From NCBI GenBank assembly GCA_016764995.1, contig JAESQU010000100.1:1-56918 (forward strand): a stretch of DNA of 56,918 nt. Reading direction: 5' to 3'. Each line of letters starts with the position of its first letter. The first letter of the stretch is position 1. The translations under genes and the position numbers were made by a program. Below, piece after piece: positions 323-55,637 of this stretch. The notes beneath the pieces are model-generated. The model ran no database searches, was not told the origin of the DNA, and saw nothing but the letters and a program-made list of their open reading frames with translations. Origin of the DNA: SAR324 cluster bacterium. GTDB taxonomy: Bacteria; SAR324; NAC60-12.

Positions 323-1594
323 ATGAATCTTGAAAACGCAAATCAAGCAGAGTTGCAAGTTTGGGAAGAAAAACTTGCAGCAAAATATGCTGAATATAAG
401 GAGGCTGGACTAAAACTTGACCTTACCAGGGGCAAACCCGGAACCGCACAATTAGACCTTGCGGATGCAATGGAAGATTTACCCAAAAGCAAAATGATTT
501 TGGAGAACGGTACTGACCTCAGAAATTATGGCGGCCTTGATGGGATTCCGGCTGCACGAAAACTGGGTGCTGAAATGCTTGGACTTCCGGAATCTGAAGT
601 TATTTCCGGAGATCACAGTAGTTTGACACTGATGTATCTTTACCTGTTACACGCGTTTTATCATGGTTCGCAGGGTCCAGAAACCGCATGGGCCAAAGAA
701 AGTGAAGTGAAATTTTTGGCAATAGTTCCCGGATACGATCGGCATTTTTCCATCTGCGAGGAGCTGGGAATACGGATGATAAATGTGGACATGCTCGCTG
801 ATGGTCCTGATATGGACGCAGTTGAAGATTTGCTGCGCAATGATGCTGAAATAAAAGGTATGTGGTGTGTGCCTAAATATTCCAATCCTACAGGATGTGT
901 TTATGCTGAAGAAGTTGTGGAGAGAATTGCCGCACTCGGAAAAATTGCAGGTCCGAATTTTCGTGTGATGTGGGACGATGCTTATTGTGTACACGACCTG
1001 CTGGAAAATCCACGGCAACTGGCAAATGTGATGGACTACTGCAGAAAATATGGAACTGAGGATAATTTAATTTTAACCGCGTCAACTTCAAAAATAACCG
1101 TTGCTGGAGGAGGAATTTCATTTTTGGGCGCATCCCTGAAAAATTTGGAGAATTTCCGCAAACGTCTGTCCGTCATGAGTATTGGTCCAAACAAGCTCAA
1201 TCAGCAGCGTCATGTTCTCTTTCTGAAAAATATTGAAGGTGTTCGCTCACACATGAGGAAACATGCAGAAATTTTGAGACCCAAGTTTGAGATGGTACAA
1301 AAACATCTTGAAAATGGACTAGCCGGAAAGGGTATGGGCAACTGGGGCAAACCTGAAGGTGGATATTTTGTTTCGTTTGACTCAATCCCTGGACTGGCGA
1401 AAGAAATAATCCGCCTGGCCGGAGAAGCCGGTGTGAAGCTCACTCCCGCAGGTGCAACTTTCCCCTACGGAAAAGATCCAAAAGACAGCAATATCAGGCT
1501 GGCTCCAACTTTCCCGAGTGTGGAGGATTTGGATCAGGCGATGCAAATTTTTGTAACGTGTGTTCAGTTAGCTTCTGTTAGACAACGTATGTAA
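323..1594 (+). CDS. PLP-dependent class I/II aminotransferase (AspT-like)
   Basis: 423-aa ORF. It has LDLTRGKPGTAQLDL near the N-terminus, KYSNPTG, and a candidate PLP-lysine in ASTSKITVAGGG. Length is typical for this fold. Confidence 0.6.
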   Translation: MNLENANQAELQVWEEKLAAKYAEYKEAGLKLDLTRGKPGTAQLDLADAMEDLPKSKMILENGTDLRNYGGLDGIPAARKLGAEMLGLPESEVISGDHSSLTLMYLYLLHAFYHGSQGPETAWAKESEVKFLAIVPGYDRHFSICEELGIRMINVDMLADGPDMDAVEDLLRNDAEIKGMWCVPKYSNPTGCVYAEEVVERIAALGKIAGPNFRVMWDDAYCVHDLLENPRQLANVMDYCRKYGTEDNLILTASTSKITVAGGGISFLGASLKNLENFRKRLSVMSIGPNKLNQQRHVLFLKNIEGVRSHMRKHAEILRPKFEMVQKHLENGLAGKGMGNWGKPEGGYFVSFDSIPGLAKEIIRLAGEAGVKLTPAGATFPYGKDPKDSNIRLAPTFPSVEDLDQAMQIFVTCVQLASVRQRM

Positions 1595-16793: not shown

Positions 16794-17582
16794 TTACCGA
16801 ACCAGATTGTTGGTATTTTTAAGCATTTCATCTGCAGACTGAATTGCTTTAGAATTTACTTCATACGCACGCTGCGCGGTAATCATATTGACCATTTCTT
16901 CAACCAGGGAAACATTTGAACGCTCTAAAAATCCCTGTGAGAGTGACCCCATGTTGCTCGAGCCCGGGGCATCTACGATCGCATTCCCAGATGCAGGAGT
17001 TGATAGATAAAGGTTTTTCCCAATTGGAGTCAGTCCTGCAGGATTTTGAAAGCGTGCCAGTTGAATGCTGCCGAGTGCTTCAGGCAAATTATCATCCCGC
17101 AAAAAAACAGATACTGTACCATCGATTCCAATCTGAACTTTTCTGGTATCAGCCGGTATATTAATTTCCGGATCCATCAGCATTCCATCATTTGTCACCA
17201 AACGTCCCATACCGTCAACATTGAAATGACCATCCCTGGAATAAGCAATTATTCCGTTTGGTTGCAGAATTTGAAAAAATCCCATTCCATCAATACTCAT
17301 GTCCAGATCATTTCCGGTGTTTTCCATGTTGCCCTGCGTATGAACCTTGTCGATACTGACGTACTTCACACCGTGCCCAACATGAATTCCAACTGGAACT
17401 TGTGTAGAAACAGAAGAAGGAACACCGGCGCTGCGTTCATTATAATAAAGCAAATCCTGAAACTGGACCTTGCTTTTTTTAAATCCGGTTGTGTTAACGT
17501 TTGCCAGGTTGTTAGCGGTGGTATCGATATTTCTTTGCTGGGCCTGCATTCCGGTAGCAGCCGTATAAAGTGCGCGCATCAT
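16794..17582 (-). CDS. flgG: Flagellar distal rod protein
   Basis: MRALYTAATGMQAQQRNIDTTANNLANVNTTGFK at the N-terminus and ITAQRAYEVNSKAI at the C-terminus. 262 aa. Confidence 0.92.
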   Translation of the reverse strand: MMRALYTAATGMQAQQRNIDTTANNLANVNTTGFKKSKVQFQDLLYYNERSAGVPSSVSTQVPVGIHVGHGVKYVSIDKVHTQGNMENTGNDLDMSIDGMGFFQILQPNGIIAYSRDGHFNVDGMGRLVTNDGMLMDPEINIPADTRKVQIGIDGTVSVFLRDDNLPEALGSIQLARFQNPAGLTPIGKNLYLSTPASGNAIVDAPGSSNMGSLSQGFLERSNVSLVEEMVNMITAQRAYEVNSKAIQSADEMLKNTNNLVR

Positions 17583-17640
17583 AAGCGGTAAACTCCTGTG
17601 TCAGATTATTATGTTGGAGGTTAATTCGTTAAAAAAATTA

Positions 17641-18411
17641 TTATCCCTGAACCATGCTAATGGCTTTTTCATCTAATTTGTCGATTCTGGAAAGCGCTCT
17701 GTGTACAGTCTCATAGGCACGTGTCGCGGTGATCATTCGGGTCATTTCGAGCATACTGTTCACATTTGAATCTTCCAGCATTCCTTGCTTAATCTGAATG
17801 TCATCTGATGCAATCGGAAGATCATTACTATCAACCGGCGCAAAAAATCCTTGTCCAAGTTTCTGCAACTGGTTTTGATTTATGAAACGTACCAAACGAA
17901 AGCTGTCTTGGATAATTCCATCAACACTGACTTGGCCGCTATCGTTAACTTGAATTAAACCTTCTTTGATGATGATTTCACCTTTTGTTCCCAGAACAGG
18001 ATAACCGTCATTGGTAACAACTCGGCCTCCCGCATCAAGTTGAAAATTTCCGGCACGTGTAAAACGCTCACCCTGGGGTGTTGCAATCGTGAAAAAACCG
18101 TCGTTGGCAAGTGCAAAATCAAGATCGTTGCCTGTAACACGCATACGGCCGGGTTCAAAATTCTTACCCACTTCATCGACGACTACTGCAGATTTGTCCA
18201 TGCCTACATAATCATCCAGATATTCGTGTGACAAAAACCGCTCTTCCAGGGATTCCGGAACAATCCGTTGCGCAGTGGAAAGAACTTCCCTGAAGGAAGG
18301 CTGATCTTCTTTGAAACCAACGGTGTTGACGTTGGCCAGGTTGTTTGCAACCGTTTCCATTTTATGCTCAATTACACCTGCTGCTTGAACAAGGCTGGTC
18401 ATGCCACTCAT
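17641..18411 (-). CDS. flgF: Flagellar proximal rod protein
   Basis: VANNLANVNTVGFKED at the N-terminus and ITATRAYETVHRAL at the C-terminus. It lies directly upstream of flgG. Confidence 0.85.
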   Translation of the reverse strand: MSGMTSLVQAAGVIEHKMETVANNLANVNTVGFKEDQPSFREVLSTAQRIVPESLEERFLSHEYLDDYVGMDKSAVVVDEVGKNFEPGRMRVTGNDLDFALANDGFFTIATPQGERFTRAGNFQLDAGGRVVTNDGYPVLGTKGEIIIKEGLIQVNDSGQVSVDGIIQDSFRLVRFINQNQLQKLGQGFFAPVDSNDLPIASDDIQIKQGMLEDSNVNSMLEMTRMITATRAYETVHRALSRIDKLDEKAISMVQG

Positions 18412-50168: not shown

Positions 50169-51008
50169 ATGTCTTTATTTGTTTTATCTTTAGTTCTCTT
50201 TTCAGCGTTAATGCATGCCGGCTGGAATCTTTATTTAAAACAAAGCGGTGATCGTTTAGTGACGATATCAACCATGCATCTTGTCTCTGGAATGATTGGC
50301 ATGGTTGCCGTTCTGTTTTTGCCTCTGCCCCATGTAGAAAGCTGGCCGTATATTTTTGCGTCCGTTGTCCTGCATTTAGGTTACCATCTTTTTCTTGTTA
50401 AAGCCTACGTTTATGGTGATCTTGGTCAAGTTTATCCGATTGCGAGAGGAACTTCTCCGCTCTTGTTGGGATTTGTGTCTGTGTTTTGGATTGGAGAAGA
50501 ACTCACTTTCCAGTCGATAATTGCTATTATATTGATTACACTGGGAATATTCAGTCTAATGTTTCGTGGTAAAATGTTATTGAAGCATTCTACCCGCCCA
50601 ATTATTTACGCGTTGGCAACGGGTAGTTTCATTGCTGCTTATACTCTTGCGGATGGTTTAGGAGTTCGTTTATCCGGAAATGCAGCCTCATACGTACTTT
50701 GGCTGACGGCATTCGAGTGTTGGCCTTTATTAGCAATTACTGTATTCCTGCGTAAAGGTGCGGTATTTAGTTCCATGCGGCAAAACTGGAAATATGCTGT
50801 GCCCGGAGGAATTCTATCAGTCTCCGCGTATGGAATTGTTGTCTGGGCTATGCAAAATTCTCCGATCGCTCTCGTTTCCGCTCTCAGGGAAAGTAGCGTG
50901 GTTATTGCCGCACTGATGGGTATCTGGATTCTTGGAGAAGAAAAGTCAGTGAGGCATCTATTGTCCGTCACAATGGTAGCCGCAGGAGTGATCTTGACTC
51001 GTTTATAA
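50169..51008 (+). CDS. EamA/DMT-family transporter
   Basis: 279 aa with about ten TM helices in two repeated halves. Confidence 0.75.
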   Translation: MSLFVLSLVLFSALMHAGWNLYLKQSGDRLVTISTMHLVSGMIGMVAVLFLPLPHVESWPYIFASVVLHLGYHLFLVKAYVYGDLGQVYPIARGTSPLLLGFVSVFWIGEELTFQSIIAIILITLGIFSLMFRGKMLLKHSTRPIIYALATGSFIAAYTLADGLGVRLSGNAASYVLWLTAFECWPLLAITVFLRKGAVFSSMRQNWKYAVPGGILSVSAYGIVVWAMQNSPIALVSALRESSVVIAALMGIWILGEEKSVRHLLSVTMVAAGVILTRL

Positions 51009-51139
51009 GCTTCTTTTTTTGATTTTCGAAAGAGAAACAATTTAAGTGATTTTTCTTTTTTACCTGTTCATCTAAATCAACAAATAATTCTTCTGGTCTG
51101 CATATTGCAGAATTATAAATAACACCTCATTTATACCAG

Positions 51140-51168
51140 TTGATAAATGTCGGTGATTATTATATATT
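51140..51168 (+). promoter_or_regulatory. Near-consensus sigma-70 promoter for the micro-ORF pair
   Basis: TTGATA-N17-TATATT, ending 24 nt before the ATG at 51192. Confidence 0.45.
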
Positions 51169-51191
51169 TCAACCACATAGATGGGTAAAAA

Positions 51192-51365
51192 ATGAAAATT
51201 TCACGAGATCAAATCAATGATGCAATGTTGCGGTTTATGGATCGTGGCGGTTCAATTCGTCGCTTTGAGCGAGTTGTAGGCGAACCTATTTTGGGCAGTG
51301 ATATTTGGCTGACAGAGGACACACTGGAGATGATTGAAACGCAAGATTCGGATTTTCTGGGATAG
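51192..51365 (+). CDS. Micro-ORF 1 (57 aa), paralogue of micro-ORF 2; not in ORF track
   Basis: Hand translation gives MKISRDQINDAMLRFMDRGGSIRRFERVVGEPILGSDIWLTEDTLEMIETQDSDFLG. Confidence 0.5.
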   Translation: MKISRDQINDAMLRFMDRGGSIRRFERVVGEPILGSDIWLTEDTLEMIETQDSDFLG

Positions 51366-51454
51366 TTACTTAATGACAATATTATGTCTTTTGAGTTGAA
51401 TTCTATGAATCAGCATCAAAAGTATAGCTGACCTTATTTTAAACTATAAAAAAA

Positions 51455-51613
51455 ATGAATATTTCAACTAATCGAAACAATGAGGCAATGGCTCGATTTC
51501 TGGTAAGCCGCTATGAGCGGGTTATCGGCGAACCAATTTTGGCAAGTGATATTTGGCAATCTGAAGATATGTCAGAGCGTATTGAAATGCACAACTCGGA
51601 TTTTCTGGGATAG
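51455..51613 (+). CDS. Micro-ORF 2 (52 aa), paralogue of micro-ORF 1; not in ORF track
   Basis: Hand translation gives MNISTNRNNEAMARFLVSRYERVIGEPILASDIWQSEDMSERIEMHNSDFLG. It shares ERV(V/I)GEPIL(G/A)SDIW and the terminal SDFLG-stop with ORF 1. Confidence 0.5.
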   Translation: MNISTNRNNEAMARFLVSRYERVIGEPILASDIWQSEDMSERIEMHNSDFLG

Positions 51614-51670
51614 TAATCCCGCTTGCAAAAGTTTTTGCTATAAAGTCCTGCCGTCCTCAAGCTAAATTTC

Positions 51671-52450
51671 ATGATAACCATCCAATATGCCATCATCGGT
51701 GGTACTGGTGTTTATGACAGTGGTGTCGCTTCAATCCAGAAAACCGTAAATACGGAATACGGAAAGGTTGAAGTTGATATTGCTGAAGTTGAAGGAACCT
51801 CTATGGTTTTCCTTGCACGCCATGGAAAGGAACATGGAATCCCTCCTCATCTCATTAATTACCGTGCAAATATAAAAGCTCTGCAGGAGCTTGGAGTTCA
51901 ACATATTTTTGCGACTGCCGCAGTTGGATCTTTAAATCCGGATTACCCAACCGGTTCGTTGGTTGTGCTGTCTGATTTTATGGAGATGACAAAGCAACGC
52001 CCACTTACTTTTTTTGAGGGTGGAACTGACGATGTAAAACACGTCAACATGGATGATCCATATTGCGGAAATTTACGGAAACATCTTCTAGAAGCAGCAA
52101 AACTGCATAAGATTCAGTTCAAAGGAAATGCGGTTTATCTGTGTACTGAAGGACCGCGTTTTGAAACTGAGGCAGAAATAAGAATGATGCGGAAATGGGG
52201 AGCGGACGTGGTTGGCATGACGAGTGTTCCGGAAGTGGTTTTGGCGAAAGAACTTGGAATGTGTTATGCCTCCGTCGGATTTGTGGTTAATATGGCAACC
52301 GGAATGGAAAGTGGGCCAATTCAACTGGAATCAATCGGGGATATGCTGGCCCGGAACAAAGAAAAAGTTAACAAGATGTTTTTGGATATTTTTTCAAAAA
52401 CGCTGGATCAGCAAAATTGTGGTTGCGCAGACTCAATTGTCTGTTTGTAG
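51671..52450 (+). CDS. mtnP: S-methyl-5'-thioadenosine phosphorylase (PNP family 2)
   Basis: IIGGTG, FLARHG..H.IPPH.INYRANI.AL..LGV, AVGSL, GPRFET.AE and GADVVGMT. Confidence 0.85.
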   Translation: MITIQYAIIGGTGVYDSGVASIQKTVNTEYGKVEVDIAEVEGTSMVFLARHGKEHGIPPHLINYRANIKALQELGVQHIFATAAVGSLNPDYPTGSLVVLSDFMEMTKQRPLTFFEGGTDDVKHVNMDDPYCGNLRKHLLEAAKLHKIQFKGNAVYLCTEGPRFETEAEIRMMRKWGADVVGMTSVPEVVLAKELGMCYASVGFVVNMATGMESGPIQLESIGDMLARNKEKVNKMFLDIFSKTLDQQNCGCADSIVCL

Positions 52451-52628: not shown

Positions 52629-52946
52629 CTAAGCCACCTCTTGCAAGTGATGGAATTCCTGTATTGTATTCAGATCATTTTGCTCATCTTTTTTTGCACG
52701 ATAGAGATCCCAACGAACTTGCAAATTTAGCCAGAACTCTGCTGATACATTAAAAAATTTTGATAAACGCAGGGCCGTACTTGGTGTAACCCCACGTTTT
52801 TTGTTGACCAGTTCGTTGACTCGCTGATAAGGAACATGGATTGCGTCAGCAAGTTCACGTTGAGTGATTTTCATAGGCTGTAGGAATTCTTCCCGAAGCA
52901 TTTCTCCAGGATGTGTTGGTTCTCGATGAGTTGGAATTCTGATCAT
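52629..52946 (-). CDS. higA: HigA-family antitoxin (XRE HTH)
   Basis: HPGEMLREEFL.P..ITQRELADAI.VPYQRVNELVN.KR.VTPSTALRLSKFF. Confidence 0.88.
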   Translation of the reverse strand: MIRIPTHREPTHPGEMLREEFLQPMKITQRELADAIHVPYQRVNELVNKKRGVTPSTALRLSKFFNVSAEFWLNLQVRWDLYRAKKDEQNDLNTIQEFHHLQEVA

Positions 52947-52955
52947 GATGTTCTC

Positions 52956-53258
52956 CTAATGATAGTCAGTGATTTCTACGTTGCAAGGTTCGGAATTTTC
53001 CCAACGAAAACAAATTCTATATTGTTCATTTATTTGGATACTGTACTCTTCTTTTCTGTCACCGGCTAGTTTTTCAAGCCGATTCCCAGGAGGAATTCTC
53101 AGTTCTTCATGTTGTTGAACGGAATCCAACTGATCTAGTTTTCTAGAAACAATCTTCCAAAGTTTTTGTGGACAGATTTTTCTAGCAGCTTTCGTGTTTA
53201 ATCCATTGAAAATATCCTCAGTCGCCTTATTATTGAATGATTCTATCATAAGGATCAC
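52956..53258 (-). CDS. higB: HigB-family (RelE/ParE superfamily) toxin
   Basis: F.NK..EDIFNG....AARKI, PPGNRLEKL.GDR...YSIQINEQYRICFRW......VEI.DYH. It lies 9 nt upstream of higA. Confidence 0.85.
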   Translation of the reverse strand: MILMIESFNNKATEDIFNGLNTKAARKICPQKLWKIVSRKLDQLDSVQQHEELRIPPGNRLEKLAGDRKEEYSIQINEQYRICFRWENSEPCNVEITDYH

Positions 53259-53381: not shown

Positions 53382-55637
53382 TTATTCACGTTTTTCGGTC
53401 TGTTCCAGCATTTTCCAGCGTACAATCGGAATTTGTTGCAATATTTCAGTATCTGAAATGTTGTAGATTTGGGTTTGAGTAATTGCGTTGGCGCAACTTA
53501 TTTTTGACTCACTTGAGATCATCTTTTCACCTCCCCAAAATTCACCTTTCCACACCACATGCTGACTTTCTGCTTTGTCAGTTCCACGACCGGTTAATTC
53601 CACTTTGCCTTCTTTGACCAGCATCAGCCCATCGCATTCGATAGAATCACCTTTCTTGTATTTTGAAAGTGACATGCTCTGTGCAATTTGACTTTGAATT
53701 GGAGAAGATATTGATTCACCGAACAACCATGTTTGTCGCAAAAACTCAATCTTCTCTTGCGTATTTTTAATCTGTTTTAAAAGCTGGTTTCGTTTGACAA
53801 ACTCTTTGAACAAAACAGCGGGAATTTTTAGAGTTTCAATATGACTTAAAGTTCGATATGTTCCTCTACTTTTCAGCCCAAAAAGTACTGCCAAGTCTCC
53901 AATTAGTGTTCCGCTGGATAAGGGGTAACTTGTTTTTTCATGCGGTGAAAGTAATTCTGCTACGCCAGTAAGAACCAAATATACATGCTCCGGGATTTCC
54001 TGATCTCGGAGTAGAATAGTTCCGGCATTGACAGATTCGCGCTCACAATTGAGCAACATGTGAATTTCACCAAGTTCAACGTCTGGATAGTATTTTCGCA
54101 AATAATCTGCACCAAATTCCAGCGAATAATCTTCATGACCTTCAATCAGCGTGTCCATGCTGCCAAAGGTGACTCCGCAACCAATTATTTTTTCTTCCTG
54201 CGTAAGCTTGTGTGCTGTATGTGCCAAAATTATTTTGTCTGATTTGTCAGTCTTAAAATCTACTGCTTTGCCGTGAATCATTCCTCCGCCAATATCGATT
54301 TTCTTGACTTGTACAGGCCTAAGGTATTCTGCCCAAACCTTTTTCATAAACGACGGACTGATGCCTGGTAGTTGCGGATTTTCTTGAACCATTTTTTTCA
54401 AAACATCATGAGATGAAACATCTGCTAAATGTGCGTAAGTCGCATAACCATCTTTCCAAAGTGTCCTGAAAAACAGAATATTTGTTTCAACAGGATGTGG
54501 AGAATATACGGGTCGAACTTCTAGTCCGTCGATATTGTTCCATACATCAAACTCTAAATCACAAACTTCAAAAAATTCTTCAAATGTCTTTTCCTTGATT
54601 GACATCAATGAGGAAAGTTTTTTTGTAACAGATGCACGTACCAGTGCGGTAGTGTAATATTTGATCCGGTGATTTGTACGAACTAGAGTAGTCAAACCCG
54701 CAAAATGATCATCATGTGCGTGAGTATGAAAAATACCCTCCACTTCATTTACGTCTACACCGATAGAATTCAAAGTGTGCGCAATGTTTGGGCCAACATC
54801 AATCAGATAGACTTTTCCTTGAAAACTGATCACACTGGCCATACAGGGGCGATTTATATCCCAACCATCGCCTTCACCTGTATGAACGACAGAGAAATAT
54901 TCGCGTTTAAAGTGGTGGTTTTCAAGCTCATAAGGTGTCTGGTAAATTTCATTGATACCAAGATTCAGGTCAACTTCTACACTTTCATTTTTATAATTGA
55001 ACTCATAACAGTTAACGCTTTTTCTTACTACATGTACCCCGTTTAGTACTTCCACAGGTTCATCATCAACAAACCGGGCTTCCAGCAAATCAGTAGTTGG
55101 GCGAATTGCTCCAAAGGCAAAGTGGAGTTTGATCCGCATCATTTCCTCTGCTTTTTCTTTTGAAACTCCTGTTTCAAGGATTTCCTCCAGAGTTTCCAAA
55201 CCATAGTTGCCACGATGAATGTATTCCATCTGAGCGTTAACCACGTTTTTACGGCCTATTAGCAGAGGTTTTGCACCGGTATTGTTAGGGTGATTAGGCA
55301 AAAGCATGCCTTGGCGGTAGAGCATCTGTAGTACTGGAAACTCTGCTAAATTGGCAAAGTCTCCTTTTTGAACACTTAAATCGGAAAGAAGAATTGCATT
55401 CGGACCAGTTTCATTTGTGACGCTACCGTGTGGATGTTGAAATGAACCCGATCCAGGCTCCAAGGAACTGACTTCCCGGTCAAGATCGCGGATTTTACCG
55501 GCTTTCATCAAGTGCTTGACACTATCAGCAGGACATCCGCAAAGCACATATAATTCAGCTTCCGGAACTTCCAGCCAGAAAACACCAGCCGCAATTTTAG
55601 TTAAAGCAATCCTGGACATTCTGCTTCTCGCAAACAA
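53382..55637 (-). CDS. Multidomain protein: unknown N-terminal region + metallo-beta-lactamase fold + two cyclic-nucleotide-binding domains
   Basis: The HxHxDH motif FHTHAHDDHFAG is mid-protein. Two C-terminal cNMP-binding-like modules are present (VYLVLTGVAELL...GTLIGDLAVLFG; GLMLVKEGKVELT...GEFWGGEKM). The start is TTG 55637 or ATG 55619. Confidence 0.8.
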   Translation of the reverse strand: MFARSRMSRIALTKIAAGVFWLEVPEAELYVLCGCPADSVKHLMKAGKIRDLDREVSSLEPGSGSFQHPHGSVTNETGPNAILLSDLSVQKGDFANLAEFPVLQMLYRQGMLLPNHPNNTGAKPLLIGRKNVVNAQMEYIHRGNYGLETLEEILETGVSKEKAEEMMRIKLHFAFGAIRPTTDLLEARFVDDEPVEVLNGVHVVRKSVNCYEFNYKNESVEVDLNLGINEIYQTPYELENHHFKREYFSVVHTGEGDGWDINRPCMASVISFQGKVYLIDVGPNIAHTLNSIGVDVNEVEGIFHTHAHDDHFAGLTTLVRTNHRIKYYTTALVRASVTKKLSSLMSIKEKTFEEFFEVCDLEFDVWNNIDGLEVRPVYSPHPVETNILFFRTLWKDGYATYAHLADVSSHDVLKKMVQENPQLPGISPSFMKKVWAEYLRPVQVKKIDIGGGMIHGKAVDFKTDKSDKIILAHTAHKLTQEEKIIGCGVTFGSMDTLIEGHEDYSLEFGADYLRKYYPDVELGEIHMLLNCERESVNAGTILLRDQEIPEHVYLVLTGVAELLSPHEKTSYPLSSGTLIGDLAVLFGLKSRGTYRTLSHIETLKIPAVLFKEFVKRNQLLKQIKNTQEKIEFLRQTWLFGESISSPIQSQIAQSMSLSKYKKGDSIECDGLMLVKEGKVELTGRGTDKAESQHVVWKGEFWGGEKMISSESKISCANAITQTQIYNISDTEILQQIPIVRWKMLEQTEKRE

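Follow-up and report, generated by a model that had tools for sequence, protein, structure and literature searches.

The transcription factor SutA of Pseudomonas aeruginosa, a protein of 105 amino acids (PF20661, NF041490; PDB 7F0R, 7XL3 and 7XL4), binds RNA polymerase (RNAP) via a docking module that consists of a helix (residues 57-76), a Gly-Gly hinge and a strand (residues 81-84) and sits in a hydrophobic groove on the beta protrusion of RNAP (PMC9300723). Cryo-electron microscopy and mutagenesis mapped the contacts with the protrusion to K60, R64, L67, M71, F74, L75, G78, G79, V81 and I84, and bulky substitution of the hinge impairs binding (He et al. 2022, PMC9300723). The module is preceded by a D/E-rich N-terminal tail of about 55 residues and a wedge loop, both of which are needed for activation (PMC9300723, 10.1101/423384); past the strand, the chain crosses the protrusion towards sigma region 3.1 (PMC9300723). 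SutA without the N-tail (delta-N) inhibits transcription in vitro (Bergkessel et al., bioRxiv 10.1101/423384), and SutA has been described as limited to Pseudomonadales, Alteromonadales and Oceanospirillales and as being without homology to other RNAP-binding proteins (PMC9300723, 10.1101/423384). Here we analyse two tandem micro-genes, ORF1 and ORF2, that are located on a contig of 56,918 nucleotides (the whole of which is hereinafter the window) from a metagenome-assembled genome (MAG), 85% complete, of a SAR324 cluster bacterium, and that appear to present another facet of the SutA story.

On balance, we consider it probable that ORF1 is a SutA-type mini-protein that modulates RNAP, that ORF2 is its hinge-less duplicate, and that both are driven by sigma-54. 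The starting point is that ORF1 and ORF2 are genuine coding genes. The first-pass annotation had described two paralogous micro-ORFs that differ by an indel of 5 amino acids and had taken them for real coding duplicates, and both assertions hold: the two open reading frames (ORFs) align end to end in BLASTP with 54% identity, 70% positives and a single gap of 5 residues (E=3e-21), and coding status is borne out by the ratios of nonsynonymous to synonymous substitution rates (dN/dS, by the Nei-Gojobori method), which are 0.07-0.13 between orthologues of ORF1, 0.13-0.32 between orthologues of ORF2 and about 0.3 between ORF1 and ORF2 within one genome, with dS near or at saturation. The bias towards the third codon position is strong, with 6, 4 and 25 substitutions at positions 1, 2 and 3, respectively, between the ORF1 of the window and that of a related locus (L006), and in most genomes, ORF2 is preceded by its own AGGAG. 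Homologues with a preserved reading frame are abundant, amounting to 122 clusters at 90% identity for ORF1 and 25 for ORF2 in a large protein collection; nearly all of these come from marine metagenomes, and the few that are named are “hypothetical proteins” of SAR324 MAGs. Thus, of the two outcomes that the annotation had considered damaging to its proposal, namely, a lack of frame-preserved homologues and a lack of codon-position bias, neither was observed. The identical 3' ends of the two genes, which it had put at some 20 nucleotides, indeed match over the last 18 (TCGGATTTTCTGGGATAG), although this identity is specific to the lineage of the window: relatives encode the DSDFLG tail with synonymous differences and, therefore, it is the peptide rather than the nucleotide string that is conserved.

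Judged by sequence comparison, residues ~1-27 of ORF1 are homologous to SutA's RNAP-binding domain, so that the N-terminal 25 residues of a protein for which no family had initially been recognised can be assigned to a SutA-type RNAP-binding module by two approaches, a Pfam match and a motif profile. The SutA RNAP-binding domain PF20661 is the sole Pfam match of ORF1 and its orthologues; it covers residues 4-27, scores 16.4 bits in ORF1 and 28.4 bits (E=1e-6) in the best orthologue, P0011, and is matched at E<=0.01 by 15 of the 22 family members. A profile built from the N-terminal motif only, with all paralogue groups included, was searched against 177,635 PDB sequences and retrieved as its top match “Transcriptional factor SutA” (7f0r_G, 7xl3, 7xl4; E=1.3e-4, 24.6 bits, 28 residues), in an alignment that pairs RDALAKAMEEFLSRGGKVQEIEPNVVADP of SutA with RDQINDAMLRFMDRGGSIRRFERVVGEP of ORF1 and includes the VV..P that follows the strand. 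In this register, R5, I8, M12, F15, M16, G19, G20, I22 and F25 of ORF1 correspond to R64, L67, M71, F74, L75, G78, G79, V81 and I84 of SutA, that is, 9 of the 10 interface residues are kept at a constant offset of 59, and the equivalent of the tenth, K60, precedes the N-terminus of ORF1. The AlphaFold2 model of ORF1 contains a helix at residues 5-17 and a strand from residue 22, at the same offset from the helix and strand of SutA (PMC9300723), with a predicted local distance difference test (pLDDT) score of ~78 there and 67.5 overall. A regular expression that captures the interface signature matches 5 of the 31,042 open frames of the genome compared with ~0.4 in shuffled sequences, and 4 of the 5 are small paralogues. 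As this case shows, recognisable regulatory families can include genes of fewer than 60 codons, a size class missing from ORF tracks.

The remainder of ORF1, residues 28-57, is an acidic half with the conserved pattern (V/I)GEP(I/V)LG.D(I/F)(W/L)(L/I)TEDTLE(L/M)(I/V)ET.DSDF(L/W)G; the net charge of the C-terminal part, there taken as residues 27-57, is -7. Because the docking module starts at residue 4, there is no N-terminal extension in ORF1; the database gene calls of 72 amino acids add an N-terminal extension that is neither acidic nor conserved.

ORF2 presents a different picture. All copies of ORF2 share the deletion of 5 residues, which removes xRGGS, i.e. the Gly-Gly hinge, and with it, the equivalents of G78 and G79; the positions of R64 and L67 are variable, and A11, M12, F15, L16, the strand-equivalent V17 and Y20, and the HDSDFLG tip are retained. 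None of the ORF2 sequences searched matches PF20661, and AlphaFold2 models one continuous helix at residues 3-24 (pLDDT 70-83 in that part). We infer that ORF2 cannot dock in the manner of SutA, although it may still bind the partner, whatever its nature, by which the C-terminal tail is recognised. Beyond the window, the genome encodes three more small paralogues, C50, C88 and C3, and all five proteins follow a common plan, a docking-type module combined with an acidic C-terminal part, to which C88 and C3 add basic N-terminal tails. Within the SAR324 family, proteins of the C50 type are encoded in almost every genus. No sigma-54 element was detected upstream of C50, C88 or C3, so that the ORF1-ORF2 unit alone carries one; upstream of C3 and C50, sigma-70-like hexamers are discernible by eye.

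The sigma-54 consensus is YTGGCACG-N4-TTGCW, in which the GG and GC dinucleotides are exactly 10 nucleotides apart. Upstream of ORF1, the window contains an element with precisely this geometry, CTGGTCTG-CATA-TTGCA. Column-wise conservation across 18 loci of the genus peaks at 51092-51111 (identity 0.88-0.91, against 0.5-0.7 in the flanks), and TGG-N8-TTGCA is retained in all 18. All 35 loci, drawn from five genera, have the relaxed core GG-N8-nTGCW on the sense strand, and none of the 35 has it on the antisense strand, the chance of one core per 200 nucleotides being 0.02-0.2 per lineage as estimated from shuffles. In the other genera, the elements lie 55-110 nucleotides before the start codon, with unrelated spacers and flanks, and one of them, in locus L050 (TGGCACG-TCCG-GTGCA), has a perfect -24 box, TGGCACG. 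The genome encodes RpoN (Sigma54_DBD, 202 bits, contig C201) and three true AAA+ sigma-54 activators, the latter count being for a genome that is 85% complete. The conserved TGG-N8-TTGCA is, therefore, most likely a sigma-54 promoter, as far as conservation and geometry allow one to judge. A site of the same form, CTGGTATGTTGCTTGCT, occurs in the window at about 18487, before two flagellar rod genes of the flgF/flgG type (16794-18411, minus strand), a flgF/G-type rod gene behind the site being confirmed by Pfam; on contigs C99 and C209, ORFs that resemble flhA and fliF, going by their N-terminal sequence only, also have a similar site in front of them. Upstream of the element of ORF1, at 51032-51071, there is an AT-rich stretch of about 40-44 nucleotides that is present only in the window and is gapped in all 17 other aligned loci of the genus.

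Several results weigh against the interpretation advanced here and have to be set beside the evidence in its favour. No family member reaches the PF20661 gathering score of 29.3 bits, and the full-length SutA model NF041490 yields only 12.7-13.9 bits against a cut-off of 145. SutA was found in the PDB only with the N-terminal motif profile, not by single-sequence or whole-family profile searches, and that profile also picks up a bacterial ribosomal protein, uL16, at E=0.004, in an alignment that needs an insertion of 3 residues and stops at GG. Confidence in the fold models is low (pLDDT 65-68), and Foldseek, run on the ORF1 model against the PDB, retrieved nothing at E<=0.001, which is to be expected for a model of 57 residues with a pLDDT of 67. 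The RpoB of SAR324 (contig C210, 32625-28336, minus strand) speaks for the interpretation in retaining FRS59VFP and LE73YV, in which Ser59 and Glu73 bear the residue names and numbers reported as SutA contacts in P. aeruginosa, but the equivalence of the numbering was deduced from the spans of alignments rather than read off the aligned residues. As for expression, the 18-locus profile revealed no conserved upstream activator site, the neighbourhoods of the three activators name no specific regulator, and the sigma-54 core is common genome-wide (113 sites vs ~75 expected), so that the site of ORF1 is unremarkable on its sequence alone, and conservation was used instead.

These observations lend themselves to other explanations. 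The resemblance to SutA could be convergent or generic, no more specific than a helix followed by RGG, in which case the proteins would bind a target other than RNAP, such as the ribosome or a signalling protein. The Pfam scores below the curated cut-off, the lack of backing from structure comparison, an architecture unlike that of SutA, with no N-tail, and the uL16 match all fit this account, and given that match, part of the SutA likeness is indeed attributable to the generic helix-RGG motif, which is probably all that ORF1 shares with uL16. The alignment with SutA, however, extends over 28 residues, through VV..P, and places 9 of the 10 contacts in register, whereas that with uL16 requires an insertion and stops at GG; moreover, three other paralogue groups of the genome independently give the SutA RNAP-binding domain as the best or near-best Pfam match, and the interface signature, at about tenfold over chance, is confined to small proteins with acidic tails. 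We regard a generic likeness as unlikely. Far less plausible still is the notion that the two ORFs encode precursor peptides from which some modified or secreted product is made, or that they form a toxin-antitoxin pair or an anti-sigma pair akin to FlgM, even though they are small, tandem and paralogous, with a conserved C-terminal tip, and sigma-54 expression would suit a protein of the flagellar cascade. No modifying enzyme, transporter or protease is linked to them, and the genes around them vary between genera; no signal or leader-type motif is present, the proteins are acidic, and it is the N-terminal helix that is best conserved. No match to PHROG or PADLOC was obtained, the only Pfam and NCBIfam matches are the weak ones to SutA and PFL_1563, with none to an anti-sigma family in these scans, in which FlgM was not specifically searched for, and because sister genera carry a single copy, no two-component system is required. 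Among the options that the first-pass annotation had listed, small regulators fare best; precursor peptides find no support, and anti-sigma factors find none at the level of protein families in these scans.

The promoter itself admits a competing account, according to which a sigma-70 promoter (TTGATA-N17-TATATT) under the control of a palindrome-binding repressor drives two small regulators of no recognised family. Both signals come from the first-pass annotation and are present in the window: the palindrome TCTGCA-TAT-TGCAGA is perfect there, the hexamers match the consensus at 10 of 12 positions, and the -10 region with the next 15 nucleotides, a second conserved block that contains TATATT and runs to the Shine-Dalgarno region, has an identity of 0.81-0.87 within the genus. 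The “near-consensus promoter” survives only to this extent, however: the -35 hexamer is not conserved (identity 0.56-0.69 across the 18 loci), neither hexamer is conserved across genera, and in the AT-rich spacer (28% GC), such hexamers are frequent in any case (5 found vs 2.9 expected). Conservation falls precisely on the GG and TTGCA of the sigma-54 element, bases that also turn up in other genera amid unrelated spacers. We rejected the palindrome as a conserved operator given that it is perfect in only 3 of the 18 genus loci and its symmetry is lost in the other 15 through non-compensatory changes, whereas the overlapping TGG-N8-TTGCA is invariant and present in four other genera. Likewise, the second block (TTCAAY) was tried as a cross-genus leader motif and discarded, being inconsistent outside the genus. 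Repressor-controlled sigma-70 expression accordingly strikes us as unlikely, and next to the sigma-54 promoter that we favour, the sigma-70-like site may be a secondary one.

The family is narrow, as implied by the recovery of only 28 clusters at 50% identity among 1.84 billion representative proteins, a collection in which no bridging architectures were found either. The full-length family is confined to one taxonomic family, in which it is present in 42 of the 44 genomes (among 88 sampled from the SAR324 phylum). Each of the other 17 genomes sampled from the genus of the window carries the tandem pair, and a single full-length copy is found in the genera g8, g10, g11 and g12; in divergent contigs, the genes for the 57- and 52-residue proteins are always in tandem, just upstream of the phosphorylase gene, with or without EamA. 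In the maximum-likelihood tree, the ORF2 sequences form one clade (support 96/97) with longer branches, and ORF1 stays near the single-copy orthologues. This topology points to a single duplication close to the base of the genus, after which ORF2 evolved faster and ORF1 retained the ancestral form. Concerted evolution or gene conversion, considered as the source of the identical 3' ends, was dismissed given the monophyly of ORF2 and the synonymous differences among the tails of relatives. A metagenomic protein of 52 residues, P0119, joins a hinge-deleted N-terminus of the ORF2 type to a C-terminal half of the ORF1 type (GSDIWLTEDTLELIETQDSDFLG), which suggests occasional recombination between the two copies.

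The gene neighbourhood was correctly described at the outset: the flanking genes in the window encode an EamA transporter and a PNP_UDP_1 (MTAP-type) phosphorylase. A terminator scan combined with RNAalifold found no terminator separating ORF1, ORF2 and the phosphorylase gene, which is, then, possibly co-transcribed with the small genes; no conserved structure was predicted by RNAalifold in the leader, the ORF1-ORF2 spacer or the spacer between ORF2 and the MTAP gene, and an Rfam scan of 50900-51800 gave no match. Across the genus, the pair is accompanied by trpC, the gene of a receiver protein, EamA in some cases but not in others, and MTAP, the linkage to MTAP being restricted to the genus. 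In g11, the upstream trpC-receiver pair is retained and the downstream gene is different; in g10, the orthologue adjoins hemL and a divergent ORF (about 860-1250, minus strand, in loci L043 and L050) that resembles DksA/TraR-type zinc-finger proteins, both identified by eye only. Proteins of the DksA/TraR type are another class of RNAP-binding regulators. The gene and the candidate sigma-54 element thus travel together across genera, and the neighbours change. Further downstream in the window, between the phosphorylase gene and a gene for a protein of 751 amino acids, lies a pair of a HigB-like toxin (PF05015) and an HTH_3 antitoxin (52629-53258, minus strand), which is missing from related contigs; there, the phosphorylase and 751-residue protein genes are adjacent. 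The 751-residue protein (53382-55637, minus strand) combines a metallo-beta-lactamase fold with a cNMP-binding domain and is encoded next to MTAP across the genus; its orthologues carry precomputed matches to the Anti-Pycsar Apyc1 family.

Table 1. Features of the ORF1-ORF2 locus, its paralogues and the candidate promoter elements of related genera (window coordinates unless a locus is named)
Feature	Position	Strand	Evidence or remark
ORF1	51192..51365	+	57 amino acids, SutA-RNAP-binding-domain-like mini-protein; position confirmed
SutA-type RNAP-binding module, ORF1 residues 4-27 (helix, Gly-Gly hinge, strand)	51201..51272	+	PF20661, motif profile, AlphaFold2
Acidic C-terminal half, ORF1 residues 28-57, ending DSDFLG	51273..51362	+	conserved in ORF1, ORF2 and single-copy orthologues
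3' end of ORF1, 18 nucleotides	51348..51365	+	identical to 51596-51613 in ORF2
ORF2	51455..51613	+	52 amino acids, paralogue without the xRGGS hinge; position confirmed
Candidate sigma-54-type -24/-12 element	51093..51109	+	GG at 51095-96, GC at 51107-08
Predicted sigma-54 transcription start	51119..51121	+	about 11-13 nucleotides after the -12 C, from standard geometry
Palindrome TCTGCA-TAT-TGCAGA	51097..51111	.	overlaps the sigma-54 element
Sigma-70-like TTGATA-N17-TATATT	51140..51168	+	10/12 consensus positions; possible secondary promoter
Second conserved block, TATATTTCAAYNACWTAG	51162..51181	+	mean identity 0.81-0.87 within the genus; -10 box or leader element
MTAP-type phosphorylase gene	51671..52450	+	PNP_UDP_1 E=7e-45; starts 57 nucleotides downstream of ORF2
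C50, 73 amino acids	L003:290-511	-	helix-GG-strand signature, acidic C-part
C88, 102 amino acids	L016:1405-1713	+	helix-GG-strand signature, acidic C-part, K/R-rich N-tail
C3, 76 amino acids	L017:323-553	+	helix-GG-strand signature, acidic C-part, K/R-rich N-tail
g11 element			TGGTCCGTGATTTGCA, TGGTCATAAATTTGCA, TGGAATCAAATTTGCA; upstream of single-copy orthologues
g10 element			TGGCATGYATACTGCA, in L050 TGGCACGTCCGGTGCA; upstream of single-copy orthologues
g12 element			GGGTCTGCAATTTGCT; upstream of single-copy orthologue
g8 element			TGGCCCATCATTTGCT, TGGTCCACGATTTGCT; upstream regions about 60% GC

If ORF1 is indeed a SutA-type protein, it would attach to the beta protrusion of RNAP, in the core enzyme or the holoenzyme, via the amphipathic helix, the Gly-Gly hinge and the short strand, and its acidic, aromatic-tipped C-terminal half, about 30 residues in length, would be displayed on the face of the protrusion that is turned towards sigma region 3 and upstream DNA. 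Given the course of the SutA chain towards sigma region 3.1, the acidic half would be expected to emerge there rather than in the main cleft. Docked in this manner, ORF1 would modulate transcription initiation, in either direction; by analogy with SutA minus the N-tail, the effect could well be inhibitory or competitive. ORF2, a long helix with the tail but without the hinge, most likely no longer docks in the SutA fashion, and its role would be that of a modifier, of a decoy or of a diverged variant. The two genes would be transcribed from the putative sigma-54 promoter, with a start near 51120, and their expression would, therefore, require an enhancer-binding activator in its active state; a weak start of the sigma-70 type near 51175 may add a basal level. 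One can go further and conceive of the SutA helix as a portable RNAP anchor that was multiplied in SAR324, in four hinge-bearing copies with different tails plus ORF2, and of ORF1 and ORF2 as a sigma-54-triggered two-part switch in which ORF1 tethers the tail to the polymerase and ORF2 is a free decoy or a partner that tunes ORF1. This is a conjecture that we hold to be improbable; if true, the switch would amount to a previously unknown form of RNAP reprogramming in SAR324.

SAR324 is an abundant marine, deep-ocean group, for which we know of no cultured representatives and of almost no characterised regulation. Against this background, ORF1 offers a concrete, testable regulator. Moreover, the presence of a SutA-like module in this unrelated phylum suggests that the module may be an older, reusable anchor that places disordered acidic peptides on RNAP. 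ORF1, as a natural delta-N form with the tail reversed, and ORF2, as a natural hinge deletion, constitute a natural experiment on the mechanism of SutA.

SutA itself is among the closest known systems. ORF1 shares with it the helix, Gly-Gly and strand module along with 9 of the 10 contact residues in register, and both proteins are small, acidic and largely disordered and would be expected to act on initiation via a flexible acidic region. The differences are substantial: the first residue of ORF1 corresponds to residue 60 of SutA, so that ORF1 has neither the acidic N-tail nor the wedge loop; its acidic region follows the docking module, so that the topology is reversed; at 57 amino acids, it is found in the SAR324 phylum rather than in Pseudomonadales or Alteromonadales; its candidate sigma-54 promoter is conserved, whereas expression of sutA relies on RpoD and FliA/RpoS (10.64898/2026.06.26.734693); and it falls under both curated cut-offs, PF20661 and NF041490. 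By sequence, accordingly, ORF1 is related to the docking module of SutA without belonging to the SutA family as curated. SutA delta-N and the natural homologues without the N-tail (10.1101/423384) resemble ORF1 in consisting of the docking module and C-terminal residues, and show that the module can exist and bind alone, but the C-tail of SutA delta-N is short and non-acidic, in contrast to the long, conserved, acidic C-terminal half of ORF1. Our literature search yielded no publication that deals with SutA-like proteins of SAR324, and none on the third comparator, the PFL_1563 small-protein family (NF058628, 51 positions), the model of which matches the N-terminal motif of ORF1 relatives, C88, C3 and C50. 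These matches are weak, at 14-28 bits against a cut-off of 60 (13.8 bits for ORF1 and 28.4 for the best paralogue, C88), and NF058628 is an equivalog model for Pseudomonas-type proteins.

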